Below, piece by piece: positions 2,416 through 58,008 of a DNA stretch of 64,000 bases. Location: contig JBAZUT010000001.1 of assembly GCA_041661265.1 (NCBI GenBank), positions 65,854-129,853 on the forward strand. Reading direction: 5' to 3'. Below the pieces are notes generated by a model. The model saw nothing but the letters and a program-made list of their open reading frames with translations. It did no database searches and was not told the DNA's origin. The translations under genes were made by a program, and so were the position numbers. This stretch comes from Minisyncoccota bacterium (GTDB lineage: Bacteria; Patescibacteriota; Minisyncoccia; JAHIHE01; JAGLIN01). Position 1 is the first letter of the stretch, and each line of letters starts with the position of its first letter.

Positions 2416-4089
2416 TTAAAATTTGCCTACATAAAGACAGATGCTTTTTACGTTCTGATCGCAGAGAGGATCTGTCAGATCCTCCAGTCTGGCACTCAAT
2501 TCAAAATTCTGTCCATCAGAAGACTTATAGGCATAATAGTATTCAGGATCCTTCGGATCGCGCGGCAGGTCCTCCCCGCCCGCCGACCTGAGACCGAGTG
2601 CCACTTCATTTTCCTCGTTAAGCTTTGACGCAACGGGGCTCACCGGAAAATTTCCATATATCTCTCTGTAGCTATACGCCATAAGAGATATTCTCCCAAG
2701 ATCATCTTTGCGCTTCAAGTCTCTTCCCGTGATCTCTTCAGCCTCGGTTGGCACCCCCTCCTTTTTTTCCTCCGGCTGCACGCTCTCGCCCGTATTTTCA
2801 TTTTTATCGTCGCCCGGAGCCGGGGTTGAAGCATTGATAAGGCCGTTCTCTTTCATAAATTCTTCGGTCATAACCTCTTTTCTGAAAGTTGAATCGATGA
2901 CCGGCGCATAATAGACCAGCGTCGTCAAAAACATGCCGGTCAGCAAAAGACCCAAGGCCACAATTATCTTTATTGTCCCCTGGTGCATCGTCCTGTAATC
3001 CTGCGGAAGATCCTTTCTTATGGCTTTAAGATTTTGATATATGTTATATTGAAAAACCAGCGCAAAGGACGTGATGCCGAGATCAACAACGCTGCTCAGG
3101 ACATTCATGAGATATGACACCGCCTGCGCAGCCACGCTGTTTTGTCCGGCGATCGATATGAGGATTCCGGCAGGAATTCCCACGGCCGCTCCAAATGCTA
3201 TCTCAATGACTATGATATAAATAAAAAGCCTGAAAGATAGGCTGATCATCCTCCAGAATATCTGAGAAGCTTTCCCCTTTATAAGCTCGTATCCATAGGA
3301 AAATGCTTCGAAAGGTTTCAGGCCGTCCAGGATCACGCTAAGCAGAGTGATGAATATCCAGATCTCAACAATATACAGAAGCGGAAGGATAAGAATGAAT
3401 CCTATAATGATGATCAGAAAAGACATTCCCCAGGCTTCGGGTTTCATGGAAAATTCTTCTCCGGAAGTGATAAATTGAATCAATGCGACAGCCGGAACCA
3501 AAAGGATTATTCCGGAATAGATAAAATTCCCGATAACGAACGCAGATAAATAATCTTTGAATTTTCCAAAAGCTCTCTTTATCGATTCGCGAACCTCGAG
3601 GTTCTGGTCCTTTATAGTCTCTATTATCGAAATTCCCAGGATCATCGACGGTATGGAAACGACAATGGATATCAGCGCAGACACAAAATACAGATGAACG
3701 ATGTTATATTTCAATATGGCCGTGGAATCAAAAAAGAAACTGAGCGGAAGGCTTATGGCAAGATCCATAACGCTTAGCGCAACGACTGCCAGCACGACAA
3801 GCGCCAAAAATTTACCGAGCCTCTCCTTGAACATGTCCAGCGACATATCAAACAGCTTTTTCCCGTTCAACAAAATGCCTTCGCTGAAAGCATCCGCCCC
3901 GGCATTGCCATCCGCAGTGACGGTGTCATTATCTTGCCGGACAGCAGAAGGAACGTTTTGACCCTGAACCACGCTTGGCGGAACGTTTTGACCCTGAACC
4001 TCGGGCTTCTTCCCGGTATTAAGAGCGTTCATATTCCCCTTCGCCTGGACCATCTTGCCATAATTTATTTTGCCGGGATCGATCTCCAT
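2416..4089 (-). CDS. Polytopic membrane protein; the soluble C-terminal module (YxYKSSDGxxFELSA..EDLTDPLC) resembles type II secretion pseudopilin / type IV pilin C-termini; contains an in-frame 30-bp tandem duplication near the N-terminus
   Basis: ORF track; many hydrophobic helices; C-terminal motif shared with gene 10679..11206. Confidence 0.5.
   Translation of the reverse strand: MEIDPGKINYGKMVQAKGNMNALNTGKKPEVQGQNVPPSVVQGQNVPSAVRQDNDTVTADGNAGADAFSEGILLNGKKLFDMSLDMFKERLGKFLALVVLAVVALSVMDLAISLPLSFFFDSTAILKYNIVHLYFVSALISIVVSIPSMILGISIIETIKDQNLEVRESIKRAFGKFKDYLSAFVIGNFIYSGIILLVPAVALIQFITSGEEFSMKPEAWGMSFLIIIIGFILILPLLYIVEIWIFITLLSVILDGLKPFEAFSYGYELIKGKASQIFWRMISLSFRLFIYIIVIEIAFGAAVGIPAGILISIAGQNSVAAQAVSYLMNVLSSVVDLGITSFALVFQYNIYQNLKAIRKDLPQDYRTMHQGTIKIIVALGLLLTGMFLTTLVYYAPVIDSTFRKEVMTEEFMKENGLINASTPAPGDDKNENTGESVQPEEKKEGVPTEAEEITGRDLKRKDDLGRISLMAYSYREIYGNFPVSPVASKLNEENEVALGLRSAGGEDLPRDPKDPEYYYAYKSSDGQNFELSARLEDLTDPLCDQNVKSICLYVGKF
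3950..4009. repeat. Perfect tandem duplication (2 x 30 bp, core ggaacgttttgaccctgaacc) inside the CDS, encoding VQGQNVPPS/VQGQNVPSA
   Basis: Direct read of the sequence. Confidence 0.7.
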
Positions 4090-45901: not shown

Positions 45902-45985
45902 GCCGGAGTGGTGAAATTGGCAAACACGCAGCGTTCAGGGCGCTGTGGGCGTAAGCCCTTGGAGGTTCAAGTCCTCTCTTCGGCA
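45902..45985 (+). tRNA. tRNA-Leu (anticodon CAG), long variable arm
   Basis: Manual fold: acceptor GCCGGAG/CTTCGGC, anticodon loop TTCAGGG, T-loop GGTTCAAGTCC. Confidence 0.8.
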
Positions 45986-52913: not shown

Positions 52914-54020
52914 ATGCAAATGGAAATAACAGAACTTATCAAAAAACTGATAGAATTCAAGACGGTCAATGGCAAAAATGATGAATTTGCAGCCTGCATC
53001 TGCTTTATTAAGGATTATTTCAAACCCCAGATCGAGTCGGGAAAGATATACGTCGTTGAATATGAAAAGAATGGCCTGCATTCCATCGTTTTTTCAAGCC
53101 AAAAAAACATAAAACCGGACATTATTCTGAACGGACATATCGATGTTGTCAATGCGGAAGAAAAAGATTTTACACCTATTATTAAAAGCGGTAAACTTTT
53201 TGGAAGGGGCGCGGCGGATATGAAAAGCCAGATTGCGACATTGATGCATATTTTCAAAAATATTGTCGAAAGCGAAGAAAAAAAGTCCGTTGCTCTCATG
53301 CTTACCTCCGATGAGGAACTTTCAGGAGGAAACGGAGTTGGTTATCTTTTAAATGAAATCGGATACAGATGCAAAGTTGCCATAGTTCCGGATGGCGGAC
53401 ATAACTTCGAAATGATCGTCAAGGAGAAAGGCGGATTCTGGATAAAGGTTTCAGCGAGCGGAAAATCCGCGCACGGCTCAAGAACATGGCTAGGTGAAAA
53501 CGCCGTCCTGAAGCTCATGACGTTCTTTTACGAACTTGAGGAAATATTTCCGCCACTTAAAAAAACCAAAAAACTATATCAGGATGGGGTTTCAATAAAT
53601 CTCGGGGTAATGAACGGAGGAAAAAGCATAAATAGCGTTCCGGACCGCGCAGAGATGTTCCTTGATATCAGGTATTCGGAAAAAATGCACAAATCGGAGA
53701 TAATAAAAACATTGAAAAAATTAAGTAAGAAACACAAATTGAAGTTTGAAGTAACTGATGTCGTAGAAATGCTGGAAACCGACCCCCAAGATCCATATCT
53801 TAAAAAATTCAAAAATATAGCTCGCAAAACCATCTATAAACCCATTGTGATCACAAAAGCCTCGGGCGCATCGGATGCAAGATTTTTTTCAGCGAAAGGA
53901 ATCCCCGTGATCATCATGACGCCCAACTGCGGTAATAAGCATGGAAAAAACGAATGGGTGGAAATAAAAAGTATTGAAAAATTCTATGACATATTAATAC
54001 GATTCATTAACGAAATATAA
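52914..54020 (+). CDS. M20 family metallopeptidase (ArgE/DapE-like)
   Basis: HIDVV, GAADMKS, DEE..G motifs typical of M20. Confidence 0.7.
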   Translation: MQMEITELIKKLIEFKTVNGKNDEFAACICFIKDYFKPQIESGKIYVVEYEKNGLHSIVFSSQKNIKPDIILNGHIDVVNAEEKDFTPIIKSGKLFGRGAADMKSQIATLMHIFKNIVESEEKKSVALMLTSDEELSGGNGVGYLLNEIGYRCKVAIVPDGGHNFEMIVKEKGGFWIKVSASGKSAHGSRTWLGENAVLKLMTFFYELEEIFPPLKKTKKLYQDGVSINLGVMNGGKSINSVPDRAEMFLDIRYSEKMHKSEIIKTLKKLSKKHKLKFEVTDVVEMLETDPQDPYLKKFKNIARKTIYKPIVITKASGASDARFFSAKGIPVIIMTPNCGNKHGKNEWVEIKSIEKFYDILIRFINEI

Positions 54021-54024
54021 ATCT

Positions 54025-55017
54025 ATGACAAATCAAACAGGAAAGAGAGTTTTTAGCGCGATCCAGCCTTCAGGAGAGCTTCACATCGGAAACTATCTTG
54101 GAGCATTGAAGAACTTCATTAAACTGCAAAATGAATATGAATGCTTTTTTTTCATTGCCGATTATCATTCGATCACTGAAAATTACGATCCGAAAGAAAA
54201 ACCGAAACAAATCATGAACCTGGCCTTGGATATGCTTGCCGCCGGACTCGATCCGAACAAGTGTACAATTGCCATCCAATCCCAGATCTGCGAACATGCG
54301 GAGCTGGCTTGGATATTCAATACGATCACTCCGATGGCCTTTCTGGAGAGAATGACGCAATACAAGGATAAGGCGCTCGCGCAAAAACAGAACGTAAACG
54401 TCGGGTTGTTCGACTACCCCGTGCTTCAGGCTGCCGACATTTTGATCTATAAAGCGGATCTTGTCCCCGTAGGACAAGATCAGGTTCAGCATGTTGAGCT
54501 TACAAGGAATATTGCCAGGTTTTTCAATAATAAATTTGGAAAGACATTTCCGGAATCAGAGCCGATTCTGACCGAAACGCCAAAAATCATGTCTTTGATC
54601 GATCCAACAAAAAAAATGAGCAAGTCACACGGACCGAAAACTTACATAGGCATAAATGACGAACCGAAAAATATAATAGACAAAATAAAGAAAGCAACGA
54701 CGGACATGGGAACGACGGGAGAAATGACGCCCGCTTCAAAAAATTTGTTTCTCCTCATGGAGATCTTCGGGAAAAAAGAACATTATAATGAGTTCCTGGC
54801 TCAGCACAAGAACGGCACCATAAAATACAGCCAATTCAAGGAAACCCTTGGGCAGGACATCGCGGACTATTTCACTCCATTCAGGGAAAGACGGAAAGAG
54901 CTTGAAGCAAAACCGGATGAAGTGAAAAAGATCCTCGCCGAGGGAGCGGAAAAAGCAAGAAAGATCGCACATGAAACCATGAAAGAAGTAAAAGAAAAGA
55001 TCGGACTGGTTATTTAA
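54025..55017 (+). CDS. trpS: Tryptophan--tRNA ligase
   Basis: HIGNYLG (HIGH) and KMSKS motifs. Confidence 0.9.
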   Translation: MTNQTGKRVFSAIQPSGELHIGNYLGALKNFIKLQNEYECFFFIADYHSITENYDPKEKPKQIMNLALDMLAAGLDPNKCTIAIQSQICEHAELAWIFNTITPMAFLERMTQYKDKALAQKQNVNVGLFDYPVLQAADILIYKADLVPVGQDQVQHVELTRNIARFFNNKFGKTFPESEPILTETPKIMSLIDPTKKMSKSHGPKTYIGINDEPKNIIDKIKKATTDMGTTGEMTPASKNLFLLMEIFGKKEHYNEFLAQHKNGTIKYSQFKETLGQDIADYFTPFRERRKELEAKPDEVKKILAEGAEKARKIAHETMKEVKEKIGLVI

Positions 55018-55034
55018 ACATTGATAAAAAAAAG

Positions 55035-55062
55035 AGATTGCATTTTATTATGCAATCTTTTT
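55035..55062. terminator. Bidirectional terminator (agattgcat-tttatt-atgcaatct, flanked by A- and T-runs) between trpS and gene 55061..55438
   Basis: Direct read. Confidence 0.6.
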
Positions 55063-55381
55063 ATATATTTTTTCGTTCTATCTTTTTTGTTTTTTTTATT
55101 TCCTTCAACCGCTTTTTCCCTTCTTCGGTGATGATGATCGGACGCGCTCTGCCATTTTTGACCTCCCTGATCTCGCCCCGGCCTATCAACCCGCGCTGTT
55201 CTGTCCGCAGTATTATAGCTGCGACATTGTTGCCCATCTTTCCTCCAAGGATCTTCAGAAGATCAAAGTATATCACTTCACTTCCGCTTCCCCTGATCTC
55301 TTCGACCGTCAAAAGCGTATCTTCAATTCCTTTCTCCAATTCACCAGGTTCAATTTCGAGAGACAGCTCGTACATTTGCAT
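55061..55381 (-). CDS. Small winged-helix-like protein (module 1 gene; start at MQMYELS)
   Basis: ORF 55061..55438 trimmed to the internal Met preceded by AGGAGG. Confidence 0.45.
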   Translation of the reverse strand: MQMYELSLEIEPGELEKGIEDTLLTVEEIRGSGSEVIYFDLLKILGGKMGNNVAAIILRTEQRGLIGRGEIREVKNGRARPIIITEEGKKRLKEIKKTKKIERKNI

Positions 55382-55440
55382 TCCTCCTCTTCCACACTCT
55401 TTTATGATTTTTTTAAACAGGCAAAATTTTTTGCCCATAA

Positions 55441-55466
55441 AAAAATAATCCCGACTTTCGGGATTA
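55441..55466 (-). terminator. Module 1 intrinsic terminator/attenuator (aatcccg-aaagt-cgggatt plus T8 on the minus strand)
   Basis: Conserved in all three modules. Confidence 0.6.
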
Positions 55467-55547
55467 CTCTTTTATAAACGTAAAATTAAAAATATTACCG
55501 GTTTGCACGTGTTTTCTCCTGCTTCTTTTTGACATGCCGTATATCAT
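55464..55547 (-). CDS. Conserved 27-aa small ORF (MIYGMSKRSRRKHVQTGNIFNFTFIKE) ending inside the terminator stem
   Basis: Manual translation; paralogs in modules 2 and 3. Confidence 0.4.
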   Translation of the reverse strand: MIYGMSKRSRRKHVQTGNIFNFTFIKE

Positions 55548-55577
55548 TCTTTGTAATTATTTTACTCTTGATATCAA

Positions 55578-55605
55578 GGATATCACACATATACATTTAT
55601 GTCAA
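55578..55605 (-). promoter_or_regulatory. Module 1 sigma70-like promoter TTGACA-17-TATCCT
   Basis: Direct read on the minus strand. Confidence 0.5.
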
Positions 55606-55674
55606 CAGTGTGACCCGGGAACGGAAAATCCGGATCTATGCCGAAAAAGCATATCACTGCGGCATATGACCAGA

Positions 55675-55704
55675 AACGAAAAAAATAAGAGGCTTTTGCC
55701 TCTT
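55675..55704 (-). terminator. Terminator of module 2 gene (aagaggc-tttt-gcctctt plus T-run on the minus strand)
   Basis: Direct read. Confidence 0.5.
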
Positions 55705-55997
55705 TAGTACATGCCGGGGATATTCCCGGATCTTATTATTTCTTCTCCTTGCTGCGTTATGACGACTTGCCTTGCCATTATTTTCGGCGTCACTTCCGTC
55801 AATTCGCCGGTATATCCGATCAGTTTCCTCTCTTCGAGAAAATCCACCAATTCCGAGGCGTTGCCTTCCTCGATGGAAAGTTCGCTTGCGAGTAACCTAA
55901 CAAGATTGCTCCGCCACATGAATTTATTCCGCCCCATTAATCCCTTGAGCTTTTTGATCGCTATCTTTTCACAATCCTCTTTTTTATCTTTCTTCAT
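55704..55997 (-). CDS. Small winged-helix-like protein (module 2 gene; paralog of the module 1 gene)
   Basis: ORF 55704..56045 trimmed to an internal Met; C-terminal similarity to the module 1 protein. Confidence 0.4.
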   Translation of the reverse strand: MKKDKKEDCEKIAIKKLKGLMGRNKFMWRSNLVRLLASELSIEEGNASELVDFLEERKLIGYTGELTEVTPKIMARQVVITQQGEEIIRSGNIPGMY

Positions 55998-56047
55998 ACT
56001 GTACCTCCTGGCAAACTTCACACATGAACGAATGTTTTCGCTCATAA

Positions 56048-56073
56048 AAAAACAATCCCGACTATTGGGATTA
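56048..56073 (-). terminator. Module 2 intrinsic terminator/attenuator (aatccca-atagt-cgggatt plus T-run)
   Basis: Direct read. Confidence 0.55.
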
Positions 56074-56151
56074 CTTTTTTATGAATGAAAAATAAAAATA
56101 TCCGGTTTGGGAAAATCTTTTTCTGTTCCTTTTTGGCATCCCGTATATCAT
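56071..56151 (-). CDS. Conserved 26-aa small ORF (MIYGMPKRNRKRFSQTGYFYFSFIKK)
   Basis: Manual translation. Confidence 0.4.
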   Translation of the reverse strand: MIYGMPKRNRKRFSQTGYFYFSFIKK

Positions 56152-56182
56152 TCTTCAAAATTATTTTTTACTCTTAATGTAA

Positions 56183-56210
56183 AGAATACCACGTGCAGAT
56201 ATTATGTCAA
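56183..56210 (-). promoter_or_regulatory. Module 2 promoter (TTGACA-18-TATTCT with TGg extension)
   Basis: Direct read. Confidence 0.45.
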
Positions 56211-56247
56211 CAGCGCTATCCACAAAAAAGAAAGAGGGAGTTTGATA

Positions 56248-56487
56248 TTATTTTATCAACTCCCATTTTAGCAGTTCATTCCAATATTTCGGACAGGCGG
56301 ATTCGAAAGGGATCCTCAGGTCAGCTTCTTTCCTGCAGCCGGGATTGGGTGAATAGTTGCCGCAAGTCCAGCAATAACCCCCGCAAAGCACCGGAATTTG
56401 AGGACTCTCCCCCAGTGATCTCCTTGTGAAAGCCCCGTCCAAGCCGGGAATGAGAACTGCTTCTCCGGACATTTCATACATGGACAT
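56248..56487 (-). CDS. Small Cys-rich protein (MSMYEMSGE..., CGGYCWTCGNYSPNPGC), module 3 gene
   Basis: ORF track; N-terminus paralogous to the module 1 gene (MQMYELSLE). Confidence 0.4.
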   Translation of the reverse strand: MSMYEMSGEAVLIPGLDGAFTRRSLGESPQIPVLCGGYCWTCGNYSPNPGCRKEADLRIPFESACPKYWNELLKWELIK

Positions 56488-56532
56488 ATTCTTCTCCTCC
56501 TCTTCGCATCAGATAGACAATTTATGTCTATA

Positions 56533-56559
56533 AAAAAATAATCCCGACTTGCGGGATTA
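56533..56559 (-). terminator. Module 3 intrinsic terminator/attenuator (aatcccg-caagt-cgggatt plus T-run)
   Basis: Direct read. Confidence 0.55.
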
Positions 56560-56640
56560 CTTTTCTATGAAATATAAATTTGAAAATTCAAACAAAGGGC
56601 GTAGCGGCTTCTTTACCTTCTTTTTTATTCTTGTTTCCAT
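56557..56640 (-). CDS. Conserved 27-aa small ORF (METRIKKKVKKPLRPLFEFSNLYFIEK)
   Basis: Manual translation. Confidence 0.35.
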   Translation of the reverse strand: METRIKKKVKKPLRPLFEFSNLYFIEK

Positions 56641-56672
56641 TACATTCAAGCTAGTCGTTATTTCTATCCGTA

Positions 56673-56701
56673 ATTATCCTACTTTTGAAAATCAGTGTCA
56701 A
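56673..56701 (-). promoter_or_regulatory. Module 3 promoter TTGACA-17-GATAAT
   Basis: Direct read. Confidence 0.5.
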
Positions 56702-56730
56702 TAGCGGAGAATGCACATCCCAAAACAATC

Positions 56731-58008
56731 TCACTTGAACAGGATCTTCTTTACAAGCTCCTCCAATCTGAAGCCAAGATCCTTGCTCTCTTTGACCAGG
56801 ACAATCTCGGCTTGCCCGCCTGCGGGATCAATGGCCAGTTCTTTATTAAGATATCCGCGCGCCGAGATCTTTACAACAGCATTAACATCATCCAGATATG
56901 GAAATTCAAAATAGCCCCTCGTATCCGACAGTATATATTTTCCGGAATACGACACTTTTGCATCCGGAACGATCTCGTCCAGCTCATTATAGACGACCCC
57001 ATAGAAAGTTTTTGGATCATAGTATTTATTCAGAACGCCAGCTGCTTCTTTCTCTTTTCCGTCATCCCCCCAGATCGAAGTGGATCCGCCGACAGCTGTC
57101 CAATAATTAATACCTTTCAGCTTGCCCGAGTCTTTGAGGATCCAAAGCGCCCGTTCAACCCATTTCGCCTGTTCGCTTTCCGACAGATCGCCGTGAATGT
57201 CAGGAATAGGCGCGCCGAACTCACCCAGAACAACAGAACCTCCGCTCCCACTTGCAATATCCTCAACATCTTGCGCCAACTGTTCAGGAGTGCTGACATA
57301 GTGATCTATGGTCACGATTCCATCCAGGGCTTCGGTCGTTTCCTCGTCCATGACGAATCGCGCAACATCAGCGTTCATGGAAAAATAATTTGCCTGAACT
57401 TTTTTGTTTATGCTCTTGAAGGCCGACTTGGCTTCCCTATATTCGCCTATAATAAATTCCCTGAATCCCTCCACGTCCCCCGTTGAACGCGGATCCCCCG
57501 GTCCCCCATTCTCGCATTCGGGACAGCTTGAAAAAATATCCCCGTCTTCGAACAGGTCGGAGTTGAAGCGGATAAATTCCCCGGTATTTCTCAGATGCTC
57601 CTCCTTTGTGATCCTTGAATAATCAAACCACTCCTCCCATCCTGAAAAATTGCCCCTGAACCATACTTTTAATTTATATTTTCTTGCAGCGCCCACCCAG
57701 CGCTTGAGCATCGGAATGAACTCACTGTCGTAAGGAGTGGCTATGGCCACATGAGTTGAACCGATCGCGGCAATGTTCTTTACCTGATCGTCTATCACGG
57801 CATCGAAATCCTTGTCTTCCATCTTCTCACGGCTGAGATCGCGGGAATATTTCATCGTATCAACCGATTTGAAGCTCCAGAAATCCAGATCAGGCCTCGT
57901 ATAATAGACATCTGCGTGCGAAAAAACATTATAAGAATCCGCAAAGACAAGAATCGTAAAAATGATGATCGTAAAAATAAACAGTATACGAAATTTCATT
58001 TGTTTCAT
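56731..58008 (-). CDS. Secreted glycoside hydrolase, clan GH-A TIM-barrel-like (VLGEFGAP nucleophile-type motif), with a C-terminal beta-sandwich region
   Basis: Signal peptide; GEFG motif; family not assignable by eye. Confidence 0.45.
   Translation of the reverse strand: MKQMKFRILFIFTIIIFTILVFADSYNVFSHADVYYTRPDLDFWSFKSVDTMKYSRDLSREKMEDKDFDAVIDDQVKNIAAIGSTHVAIATPYDSEFIPMLKRWVGAARKYKLKVWFRGNFSGWEEWFDYSRITKEEHLRNTGEFIRFNSDLFEDGDIFSSCPECENGGPGDPRSTGDVEGFREFIIGEYREAKSAFKSINKKVQANYFSMNADVARFVMDEETTEALDGIVTIDHYVSTPEQLAQDVEDIASGSGGSVVLGEFGAPIPDIHGDLSESEQAKWVERALWILKDSGKLKGINYWTAVGGSTSIWGDDGKEKEAAGVLNKYYDPKTFYGVVYNELDEIVPDAKVSYSGKYILSDTRGYFEFPYLDDVNAVVKISARGYLNKELAIDPAGGQAEIVLVKESKDLGFRLEELVKKILFK

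Follow-up and report, generated by a model that had tools for sequence, protein, structure and literature searches.

Short open reading frames that end inside intrinsic terminators in three tandem leader modules of a Minisyncoccota bacterium: putative ribosome-gated transcription attenuators

In the pyrBI operon of Escherichia coli, the leader open reading frame (ORF) pyrL runs into and through an intrinsic terminator located within ~100-135 nucleotides (nt) of the start, and the ribosome following the polymerase blocks the hairpin without the help of an antiterminator (PMC4824070, PMC5021804). The polymerase pauses in a U-rich region ahead of the terminator, which gives the ribosome time to close the gap (PMC4824070, PMC5021804). 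Also in E. coli, a stop codon located 5 base pairs (bp) before a terminator drops termination from ~90% to <10%, an effect which is abolished when translation is uncoupled, and terminators within the first ~100 bp of an ORF are efficient unless pausing couples the ribosome to the polymerase (PMC4824070). The leader of Bacillus subtilis tlrB (yxjB) encodes a short peptide whose ORF ends adjacent to a terminator, and NusG-dependent pausing synchronises polymerase and ribosome (PMC6851288). A leader stop codon within or after the terminator stem results in translation-mediated antitermination in pil1 of Streptococcus gallolyticus (PMC3894217). The classical attenuators (trp, his, phe, leu, thr, ilv) likewise place a promoter-proximal short ORF and then an intrinsic terminator before the regulated genes; they depend on a 2:3 antiterminator, on a tandem run of codons for the amino acid being sensed, and on a terminator located >20 nt past the leader stop (PMC4824070). 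Here we describe three modules at positions 55061-56701, all on the minus strand, of a 64,000-nt stretch of a Minisyncoccota genome (contig JBAZUT010000001.1, positions 65,854 to 129,853; hereafter the window), in each of which a short ORF ends inside an intrinsic terminator upstream of a small gene.

Read 5' to 3', the modules are M3, M2 and M1. Each consists of a sigma-70-type promoter, a leader of ~130 nt with the short ORF, a hairpin with a T7 run, a small second hairpin (hairpin 2), a strong Shine-Dalgarno sequence and the small gene. An earlier note on this DNA had described the three-module layout, and all of the described features were found on the minus strand, including the stop codon in the 5' arm of the hairpin: in each of the three modules the TAA forms the first bases of the core stem. 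Of the two readings offered in that note, ribosome-mediated attenuation is favoured by the comparison of relatives, whereas a set of co-transcribed tiny proteins fits badly with a near-neutral peptide and with an ORF that reads through the terminator in one relative. The classical antiterminator form of attenuation was not borne out, as neither RNAalifold nor a complementarity search revealed an antiterminator.

We consider it fairly probable, judging from sequence comparison, that the modules attenuate transcription in a translation-coupled manner, with the ribosome itself standing in the way of the terminator hairpin. Transcription would start ~25 nt upstream of the short ORF, whose 26-27 codons would lead the ribosome across an unstructured leader with an A-rich, T-poor first half and a subsequent T-rich block, until the last four codons and the stop codon place it inside the 5' arm of a strong terminator. 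With no ribosome close behind the RNA polymerase, the hairpin would form and transcription would end, leaving an RNA of ~130 nt; the default state would be termination, about 105-110 nt from the start. A ribosome located at the last codons or at the stop codon while the polymerase is on the T-run would cover the 5' arm, no hairpin would form, and read-through would reach the small gene, to be translated from its own strong Shine-Dalgarno sequence. No antiterminator would be involved. The T-rich block is a probable pause site of the polymerase that would give the ribosome time, and this pause could depend on the supply of uridine triphosphate (UTP) or on NusG. A ribosome stalled earlier, at the upstream lysine/arginine (K/R) or phenylalanine codons, as might happen in starvation, would not reach far enough to block the stem. 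In its simplest form the model thus predicts that the genes are on when translation keeps pace and off when it lags. Candidate signals are translation capacity, charged tRNA, UTP and nascent-peptide arrest; the model could be refined by UTP sensitivity following the logic of pyrBI or by arrest of the nascent chain at the stop codon.

The modules share with pyrBI the leader ORF that runs into the terminator, the lack of an antiterminator, the T-rich region upstream of the terminator at which pausing is presumed, and the short distance of the terminator from the start. In one distant relative (L019) the terminator even lies inside the ORF, as in pyrL. In contrast to pyrL, which stops after the terminator, 22 of the 23 modules stop inside the 5' arm; orphan regulators instead of pyrimidine genes lie downstream, an extra hairpin follows the T-run, and there is no sequence similarity. 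The tlrB leader encodes a peptide of 9 residues with a C-terminal R-Y-R arrest motif, has a hairpin that sequesters the Shine-Dalgarno sequence, and is followed by a resistance gene, whereas the modules described here carry a K/R cluster ~15 codons before the stop, keep hairpin 2 off the Shine-Dalgarno sequence and precede no resistance gene. The pil1 leader is switched by a repeat-number phase variation which changes the frame, whereas the frame is fixed and conserved here. None of the requirements of the classical attenuators was found in the modules, and no biosynthetic genes lie downstream. By analogy, the modules most likely work like the pyrBI/tlrB/pil1 class and lack what defines classical amino-acid attenuators and riboswitches. 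As far as their sequence tells, they are not members of any described family.

The earlier note had proposed to look for the peptide and the hairpin in related genomes. The same architecture was found as 23 modules in 12 related metagenomic genomes, the window's genome included, with compensatory changes in the terminator stem. The eleven further genomes were taken from the contigs of homologs of the downstream proteins. The loci L001, L002, L006/L007, L008, L009, L010 and L011 are all syntenic beside trpS, and L018, L019/L020, L021 and L022 are more distant relatives. A first set comprised 18 modules in the first eight genomes; 17 of these are complete, and the module of L011 is truncated where its contig stops. 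The parts upstream of every homologous small gene are the same: a promoter with TTGACA and a spacer of 16-17 nt, the short ORF, the T-rich block, the hairpin with its T-run, and hairpin 2. The proteins of the distant relatives match only at E = 7e-8 to 6e-4, yet the module geometry is the same. The family is very narrow, as judged from database representation, and the evidence is comparative throughout: homologs of the three downstream proteins formed 3, 5 and 3 clusters among 5.8 billion proteins, and the profile of gene 2 returned 5 representatives among 1.84 billion proteins. Profiles run with nhmmer over the window gave no copy beyond the three, and the exact hairpin pattern had 0 matches in the genome and viral contig collections. 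No true relatives were obtained with the profile of the cysteine-rich protein in genome contigs or with both protein profiles in viral contigs. A pattern of promoter and 5' untranslated region (UTR) had 6 matches in metagenome contigs, all of them due to chance and unrelated to the module.

In 22 of the 23 modules the ORF ends in the 5' arm of the terminator, its stop codon being the first 3 nt of the core stem. An ATG exactly 26 or 27 codons before this stop is present in all 17 complete modules of the first set, and the ORF is again 27 codons long in both modules of L018 and in L022. L021 has a shorter ORF of 16 codons, which likewise stops in the 5' arm. In the most distant relative, L019/L020, the ORF comprises 50 codons, reads through the terminator and stops 9 nt past the T-run. 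Parsimony on three ORF alignments placed 163 substitutions, none in the ATG and two in the stop codon, both from TAA to TGA. The sole indel inside the ORF is 3 nt long, and indels of 1-2 nt occur in the 5' UTR and after the terminator. The other two reading frames carry conserved stops. The block AAAYCGGATAT(T)TTTATTTTTCA is common to A-type and B-type leaders. A T-run that differs by 1 nt between the two types shifts the frame of the upstream part; both types keep an ORF of 26-27 codons despite this out-of-frame indel. After shuffling of the leader in blocks of 9-15 nt, an ATG-started ORF of 20-34 codons reaching that stop was present in 2-7% of the trials.

Stop avoidance was assessed by simulation: the observed substitutions were redistributed randomly over the inferred tree, and the fraction of trials in which all leaves were free of stops was counted. 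These tree-aware simulations were used instead of a column-shuffle null, which mixes the A-rich and T-rich halves and is too lenient for stop codons. The probability of a stop-free outcome was 0.0035 with local and 0.0003 with global placement for the A group of nine sequences, and 0.10 (local) and 0.02 (global) for the B group of seven sequences; the smaller groups alone gave 0.03-0.36.

The encoded peptide is far less constrained than the frame. Changes at codon positions 1/2/3 numbered 48/49/65, and 48 synonymous stood against 110 nonsynonymous changes, a fraction of 0.30 versus a neutral 0.235, corresponding to an omega of ~0.7. A column-shuffle test for a coding signature revealed no excess of synonymous change; a small excess was seen in the extended A group only (0.34 vs 0.24, P = 0.012). 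The earlier note had named the absence of favoured synonymous changes as a refuting outcome. This nearly applies to the peptide, yet frame, ATG and length are conserved in the 23 modules. The near-neutral peptide speaks against a functional peptide, not against a regulatory ORF: an open frame kept together with an almost freely changing peptide is expected if the act of translation matters and not its product. What is conserved, according to the alignments, is an open frame of fixed length that would deliver the ribosome into the terminator, and mostly not the amino-acid sequence. The peptides follow a loose pattern of a K/R cluster and then F-Y-F-S...[FL]-I-K-K, which constraints at the nucleotide level (A-rich half, T-rich block and A-tract of the stem) appear to explain in part. 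They are enriched in K (16%), F (12%) and R (11%), have no conserved single-residue run, and contain no hydrophobic stretch or signal segment.

The short ORFs have no Shine-Dalgarno sequence. The same holds for 32 of the window's 34 long ORFs, their starts being preceded by a similar A-rich sequence, and GGAG, GAGG or AGGA occurs within 20 nt of the start in the other two. As most genes of this genome do without a Shine-Dalgarno sequence, its absence is no argument against translation of the short ORFs, whose start context is typical for the genome. The three small downstream genes are exceptions with unusually strong GGAGG sites (GAGGAGGAG, AGGAGG and GAGGAGG).

The terminator is real and is kept by compensatory change. 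The pattern AATCCC-N(3-9)-GGGATT occurs three times in the window, only at the modules, against 0.13 occurrences expected by chance. The stems of 8-11 bp followed by T7 have the form of intrinsic terminators. In an alignment of 18 modules, 97.9% of the cells of a 16-pair stem were paired, compared to a maximum of 63.5% in slid controls, and four stem pairs showed compensatory changes on both sides (25 cells; 18 sequences). The whole core stem was exchanged in several copies from AATCCCG/CGGGATT to AACCTTC/GAAGGTT, besides wobble variants, and the T-run was kept; in L001 and L002 the stem orthologous to that of M1 is replaced by TAACCTT/AAGGTTA. On its upstream side the stem takes in the last four sense codons of the ORF, which are A-rich and pair with the T-run, and in L008 one extension pair underwent a double change from U-A to C-G. 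The three leaders including the terminator had folding z-scores of -4.1, -1.7 and -2.2. The aatcccg...cgggatt hairpin with T-run reported in the earlier note is thus present in all three modules, each with T7, except that the innermost pair in M2 is an A-C mismatch (AATCCCA...TCGGGATT).

Hairpin 2 follows the T-run directly in every module, at a conserved position. M2-type hairpins were paired in 100% of the cells of 7 sequences, and five of their pairs vary only through G-U, a strand-specific variation which places the constraint at the RNA level. L018 shows double compensation at two adjacent pairs (GAGCGAA/UUCGCUC to GAGCAG/CUGCUC). The Shine-Dalgarno sequence lies outside hairpin 2, which could act as 5' stabiliser of a processed read-through mRNA or as a pause element.

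Two further observations were made on these hairpins. The stem type tends to be uniform within a genome, AATCCCG occurring in the three modules of the window and AACCTTC in both modules of L006, L008 and L009, and L001 and L002 have a mixture of stem types. The uniformity suggests gene conversion between modules or a shared trans-acting factor. The 5' UTRs (56661-56655, 56168-56159) carry AAAUAAU in A-type or AAAAAAUAAU in B-type modules, a motif complementary to the 3' arm of the terminator plus T-run (AUUAUUUUUU) and resembling the terminator's own 5' arm. This complementarity may be fortuitous, given the A/U-rich sequence, or it may serve long-range pairing within the terminated RNA.

Upstream of the terminator the leader has no structure that could be recognised. 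RNAalifold predicted only the terminator and hairpin 2 in 7 A-type and 10 B-type leaders, and the three leader bodies did not fold better than dinucleotide shuffles (z = -0.52, -0.53 and +0.13). Pairing of upstream sequence with the 5' arm of the terminator amounted to a maximum of 4-5 bp, at inconsistent positions, and did not follow the stem swap. Hence there is neither an aptamer nor an antiterminator, and the ribosome would have to occlude the terminator directly. A consensus scan of the minus strand between terminator and downstream gene revealed no promoter-like site, which indicates that the small genes are transcribed only by read-through. The first ~13 codons contain 50% A and 12% T in all 17 complete modules. 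In the same modules the 27 nt before the stem contain 53% T with runs of T4-T7, a value reached by 2.2% of the genome windows; this T-rich block lies 10-36 nt upstream of the stem.

Several observations weigh against occlusion by the ribosome. The terminator lies only ~80 nt after the ATG, so that the ribosome would be in place only if the polymerase paused as presumed. All sequences come from one narrow clade. Stop avoidance is only moderate in single groups, with P = 0.1-0.36 in the small B groups (local placement). The C-terminal codons are A-rich through pairing with the T-run and the T-rich block is possibly constrained as RNA or DNA; part of the apparent conservation of the peptide and of the lack of stops may be nucleotide-level constraint. 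The hairpins also score as terminators on the plus strand and may insulate independently of the ORF. Finally, gene 2, an ordinary gene of the same locus, also has a terminator abutting its stop codon. The overlap of ORF and terminator is not the default of this genome, since the five long genes whose terminators could be recognised have 15-78 nt between stop codon and stem.

The leader could, instead of being a passive coupling device, serve as a sensor, either by nascent-chain arrest or by reading nucleotide supply; the two versions taken together appear rather unlikely, and either way three parallel ribosome-gated terminators would result. In the first version, a small molecule would induce ribosome arrest at the stop codon through the conserved C-terminal part of the nascent peptide (F-Y-F-S ... 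[FL]-I-K-K), resembling TnaC but acting on an intrinsic terminator. In the second, the A-rich and then T-rich leader would read the supply of UTP or other nucleoside triphosphates (NTPs), as in pyrBI. If one of them were true, a symbiont of the Candidate Phyla Radiation (CPR), auxotrophic for nucleotides and amino acids, would switch private regulators by what its host supplies. Sensing of UTP or of a metabolite through the nascent chain would tell how symbionts read host-derived supply, and ordinary coupling alone would be of modest interest.

Gene regulation in Patescibacteria (CPR) is almost unexplored and hardly any of these organisms can be grown. A full-text literature search returned no paper linking CPR with leader peptides or attenuation. 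With direct occlusion by the ribosome as its mechanism, the locus would be a compact, sequence-defined case of regulatory transcription-translation coupling in CPR, present in triplicate and controlling a private family of small winged-helix-like and Cys-rich proteins. Its minimal attenuator design, an ORF fixed at 27 codons that ends inside the terminator without any antiterminator, may be useful as a model or as a part for synthetic biology.

Among the alternatives to ribosome-gated termination, the modules may be attenuators that act at the RNA level only, the ORF being incidental. Control would then be exerted by a trans-acting protein, perhaps in feedback by the encoded winged-helix or Cys-rich products, or by NTP-sensitive pausing or termination. 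Such an attenuator would account for a nearly unconstrained peptide, for nucleotide blocks conserved irrespective of frame and for the conserved change from A-rich to T-rich composition. A stem type that is mostly uniform per genome could reflect a shared trans factor, and the second conserved hairpin after the T-run would also fit. It leaves unexplained the invariant ATG, the length of 26-27 codons fixed across out-of-frame indels, the absence of stops, and an ORF that reaches or passes the terminator in every distant relative; moreover, the leader has no conserved structure for a protein or ligand to recognise. We regard this explanation as unlikely.

The basic and aromatic peptide of 26-27 residues could instead be the product of independent small-protein genes, for example in signalling or as a ribosome- or RNA-binding protein, with leak-through into the downstream gene setting a high ratio of peptide to protein. 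Small peptide genes beside helix-turn-helix regulators are known from Gram-positive peptide signalling (Rgg/SHP), and the conserved ORF with its recognisable K/R cluster and F-Y-F-S...[FL]-I-K-K motif, together with the slight synonymous excess in the A group, would agree with such a role. The omega of ~0.7-1, compared to 0.3 for the neighbouring genes, and the flat pattern over codon positions argue against it. A and B types read the middle of the peptide in different frames, ORFs of 16 and 50 codons occur in distant relatives, and a hydrophobic or signal segment is lacking, which also speaks against a type I toxin. The terminator inside the L019 ORF would yield non-stop mRNAs if this were a real protein gene; an ORF that runs through its terminator, as in L019/L020, makes no sense for a stand-alone small-protein gene. 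Independent small-protein genes are in our view quite unlikely.

It is very unlikely, by our estimate, that the architecture is unregulated, with the hairpins serving as bidirectional terminators or insulators of a compact genome, a fixed partial read-through, and an ORF present by chance and ancestry. The hairpins are flanked by A-runs and T-runs and score on both strands, the locus is convergent with trpS, and shared ancestry within a narrow clade inflates conservation. Against this stand the low combined probability of keeping ATG, frame and length, and the persistence of the same geometry in relatives whose proteins have diverged to the E-values given above. Nor is it easily explained in this way that a strong terminator separates a strong promoter from the only gene it serves, in three instances.

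A riboswitch, another structured cis-regulatory RNA or a structured small RNA gene, for which the order of promoter, ~100-nt leader and terminator would be a typical layout, is highly improbable and largely refuted by RNAalifold and the shuffle z-scores, as there is no consensus structure beyond the terminator and hairpin 2, the leader body has a z-score of ~0 and is the least conserved part of the module, no antiterminator is present, and Rfam gave no leader match in the whole window at gathering threshold or in 54900-56900 at E <= 10, where only chance-level matches to microRNAs and small RNAs appeared. A long-range stem of the start-codon region with the T-rich block, seen in single-sequence folds, was rejected as it was supported by neither alignment nor shuffles.

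The locus is flanked by the convergent trpS gene (54025-55017, plus strand; Pfam tRNA-synt_1b) and by a gene for a 425-residue secreted-type protein (56731-58008). The three module promoters are the three best consensus matches in 54000-58000 (11, 10 and 10 of 12), in agreement with the sigma-70 assignment made previously. The uniform module of ~600 bp stated there was not confirmed, the lengths being 454-545 bp with a repeat spacing of 486 and 607 bp. A direct-repeat finder returned a 64-nt family around the hairpins with 80-84% identity and a 74-nt family common to M1 and M2. The leaders of the three modules measure 129-134 nt if counted from the inferred transcription start through the T-run. 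The distance from the T-run to the start codon of the small gene, previously given as ~55 nt, ranges from 44 to 63 nt. The leader peptides read exactly as quoted in the earlier note, with 27, 26 and 27 residues. The TTGACA-17 spacing claimed for all promoters holds for M3 and M1, whereas M2 has a spacer of 16 nt.

The M3 promoter (56673..56701, minus strand as all module features) has its -35 box TTGACA at 56696-56701 and its -10 box GATAAT at 56673-56678, separated by 17 nt, with 11/12 consensus matches; its sequence is nearly invariant across 7 orthologous loci. The leader ORF (56557..56640) comprises 27 codons from ATG plus TAA (METRIKKKVKKPLRPLFEFSNLYFIEK), with the T-rich block at 56569-56595, and its frame is open and 27 codons long in 9 orthologs. 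The stop codon (56557-56559) forms the first 3 nt of the core stem of the intrinsic terminator (56530..56568), which has an extended 16-bp stem with the core TAATCCCG/CGGGATTA at 56539-56559 and T7 at 56532-56538. Hairpin 2 (56513..56531; AUAGACA-uaaau-UGUCUAU) lies directly 3' of the T-run. The Shine-Dalgarno sequence GAGGAGGAG (56494-56502) precedes gene 3 (56248-56487; 56248..56502 with the Shine-Dalgarno sequence), which encodes a Cys-rich orphan protein of 79 residues.

In M2, the promoter (56183..56210) combines TTGACA and a TG-extended TATTCT over the 16-nt spacer, with 10/12 matches. Its leader ORF (56071..56151) has 26 codons plus TAA (MIYGMPKRNRKRFSQTGYFYFSFIKK) and a T-rich block at 56083-56109. 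The terminator (56044..56082) has its core at 56053-56073 (AATCCC/GGGATT, 7-nt loop), T7 at 56046-56052 and the stop codon at 56071-56073 in the 5' arm; hairpin 2 follows at 56024..56045 (AUGAGCGAA-aaca-UUCGUUCAU) and the Shine-Dalgarno sequence AGGAGG at 56005-56010. Gene 2 (55704-55997), predicted to encode a MarR-like winged-helix protein of 97 residues, has its own terminator at 55687-55704.

The M1 promoter (55577..55605) consists of TTGACA, a 17-nt spacer and a TG-extended TATCCT (10/12 matches). The leader ORF (55464..55547) has 27 codons plus TAA (MIYGMSKRSRRKHVQTGNIFNFTFIKE), and its T-rich block lies at 55476-55502. The terminator (55437..55475) again has the core TAATCCCG/CGGGATTA (55446-55466), with T7 at 55439-55445 and the stop codon at 55464-55466 in the 5' arm, and is followed by hairpin 2 (55417..55438; GGGCAAAA...UUUUGCCU) and the Shine-Dalgarno sequence GAGGAGG (55383-55389). 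Gene 1 (55061-55375; MYELS..., with its start codon ATG at 55375) encodes a protein of 104 residues, identical to P0001, with a predicted N-domain and winged helix. A terminator at 55035-55058 is shared by gene 1 and the convergent trpS.

A perfect palindrome, TGATATC-CTT-GATATCA (55569-55585), overlaps the -10 box and start region of M1; L001 and L002 have kept it. In A-type and M2-type modules, conservation is higher in the promoter spacers than in the leader ORFs. Palindrome and spacers are candidate operators at which the encoded MarR-like proteins could act in autoregulation.

The downstream genes are under purifying selection (P between 1e-9 and 1e-19) with a strong third-position excess; in the same genomes omega was ~0.29 for gene 1, ~0.32 for gene 2 and ~0.37 for gene 3. 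Searches of the three proteins against Pfam, NCBIfam, PHROGs and PADLOC gave nothing above threshold. The gene 2 product models as a MarR-like winged-helix protein: its AF2 model (pLDDT 72) resembles a winged helix, and the top 50 PDB matches were mostly to the MarR family (TM 0.43-0.59, E >= 8.7e-3). The predicted winged-helix proteins of genes 1 and 2 are ~40 residues shorter than MarR. Their earlier description as paralogs stands in a weak form, with 31% identity over 54 residues (E = 4e-4). The Cys-rich protein indeed shares its N-terminus with gene 1, the N-terminal extension of which resembles that of gene 3 (MYE[LM]S...PG...G). Gene 3 has an invariant C-x3-C-W-T-C...C motif, and its structure model was unusable (pLDDT 40.6). 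In P0016 (L019/L020, 3001-3420) an N-terminal Cys-rich domain like gene 3 is fused to a predicted winged helix like gene 2, and in P0014 (L022, 3001-3450) the predicted winged helix is fused to a C-terminal Cys-rich tail. These fusions suggest that the three products act together. Gene 1 looks like a Cys-less version of the P0016 architecture.

Some minor observations concern the relatives and the rest of the window. In L009 (2096-2591), the gene 1 homolog is followed by two extra small Cys-containing ORFs of 49 and 67 residues, the second of which has its own TTGACA promoter without the leader and terminator module. The fusion gene of L019 is flanked at 2540-2700 and 3560-3740 by repeated units of GGGATTC/GGGAATGAC and GGATCCTTCGC...CTCAGGATGACAAC, which look like a repeat family unrelated to the module. 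The only Rfam match in the window at gathering threshold was an 84-nt tRNA at 45902-45985 on the plus strand (47.9 bits).

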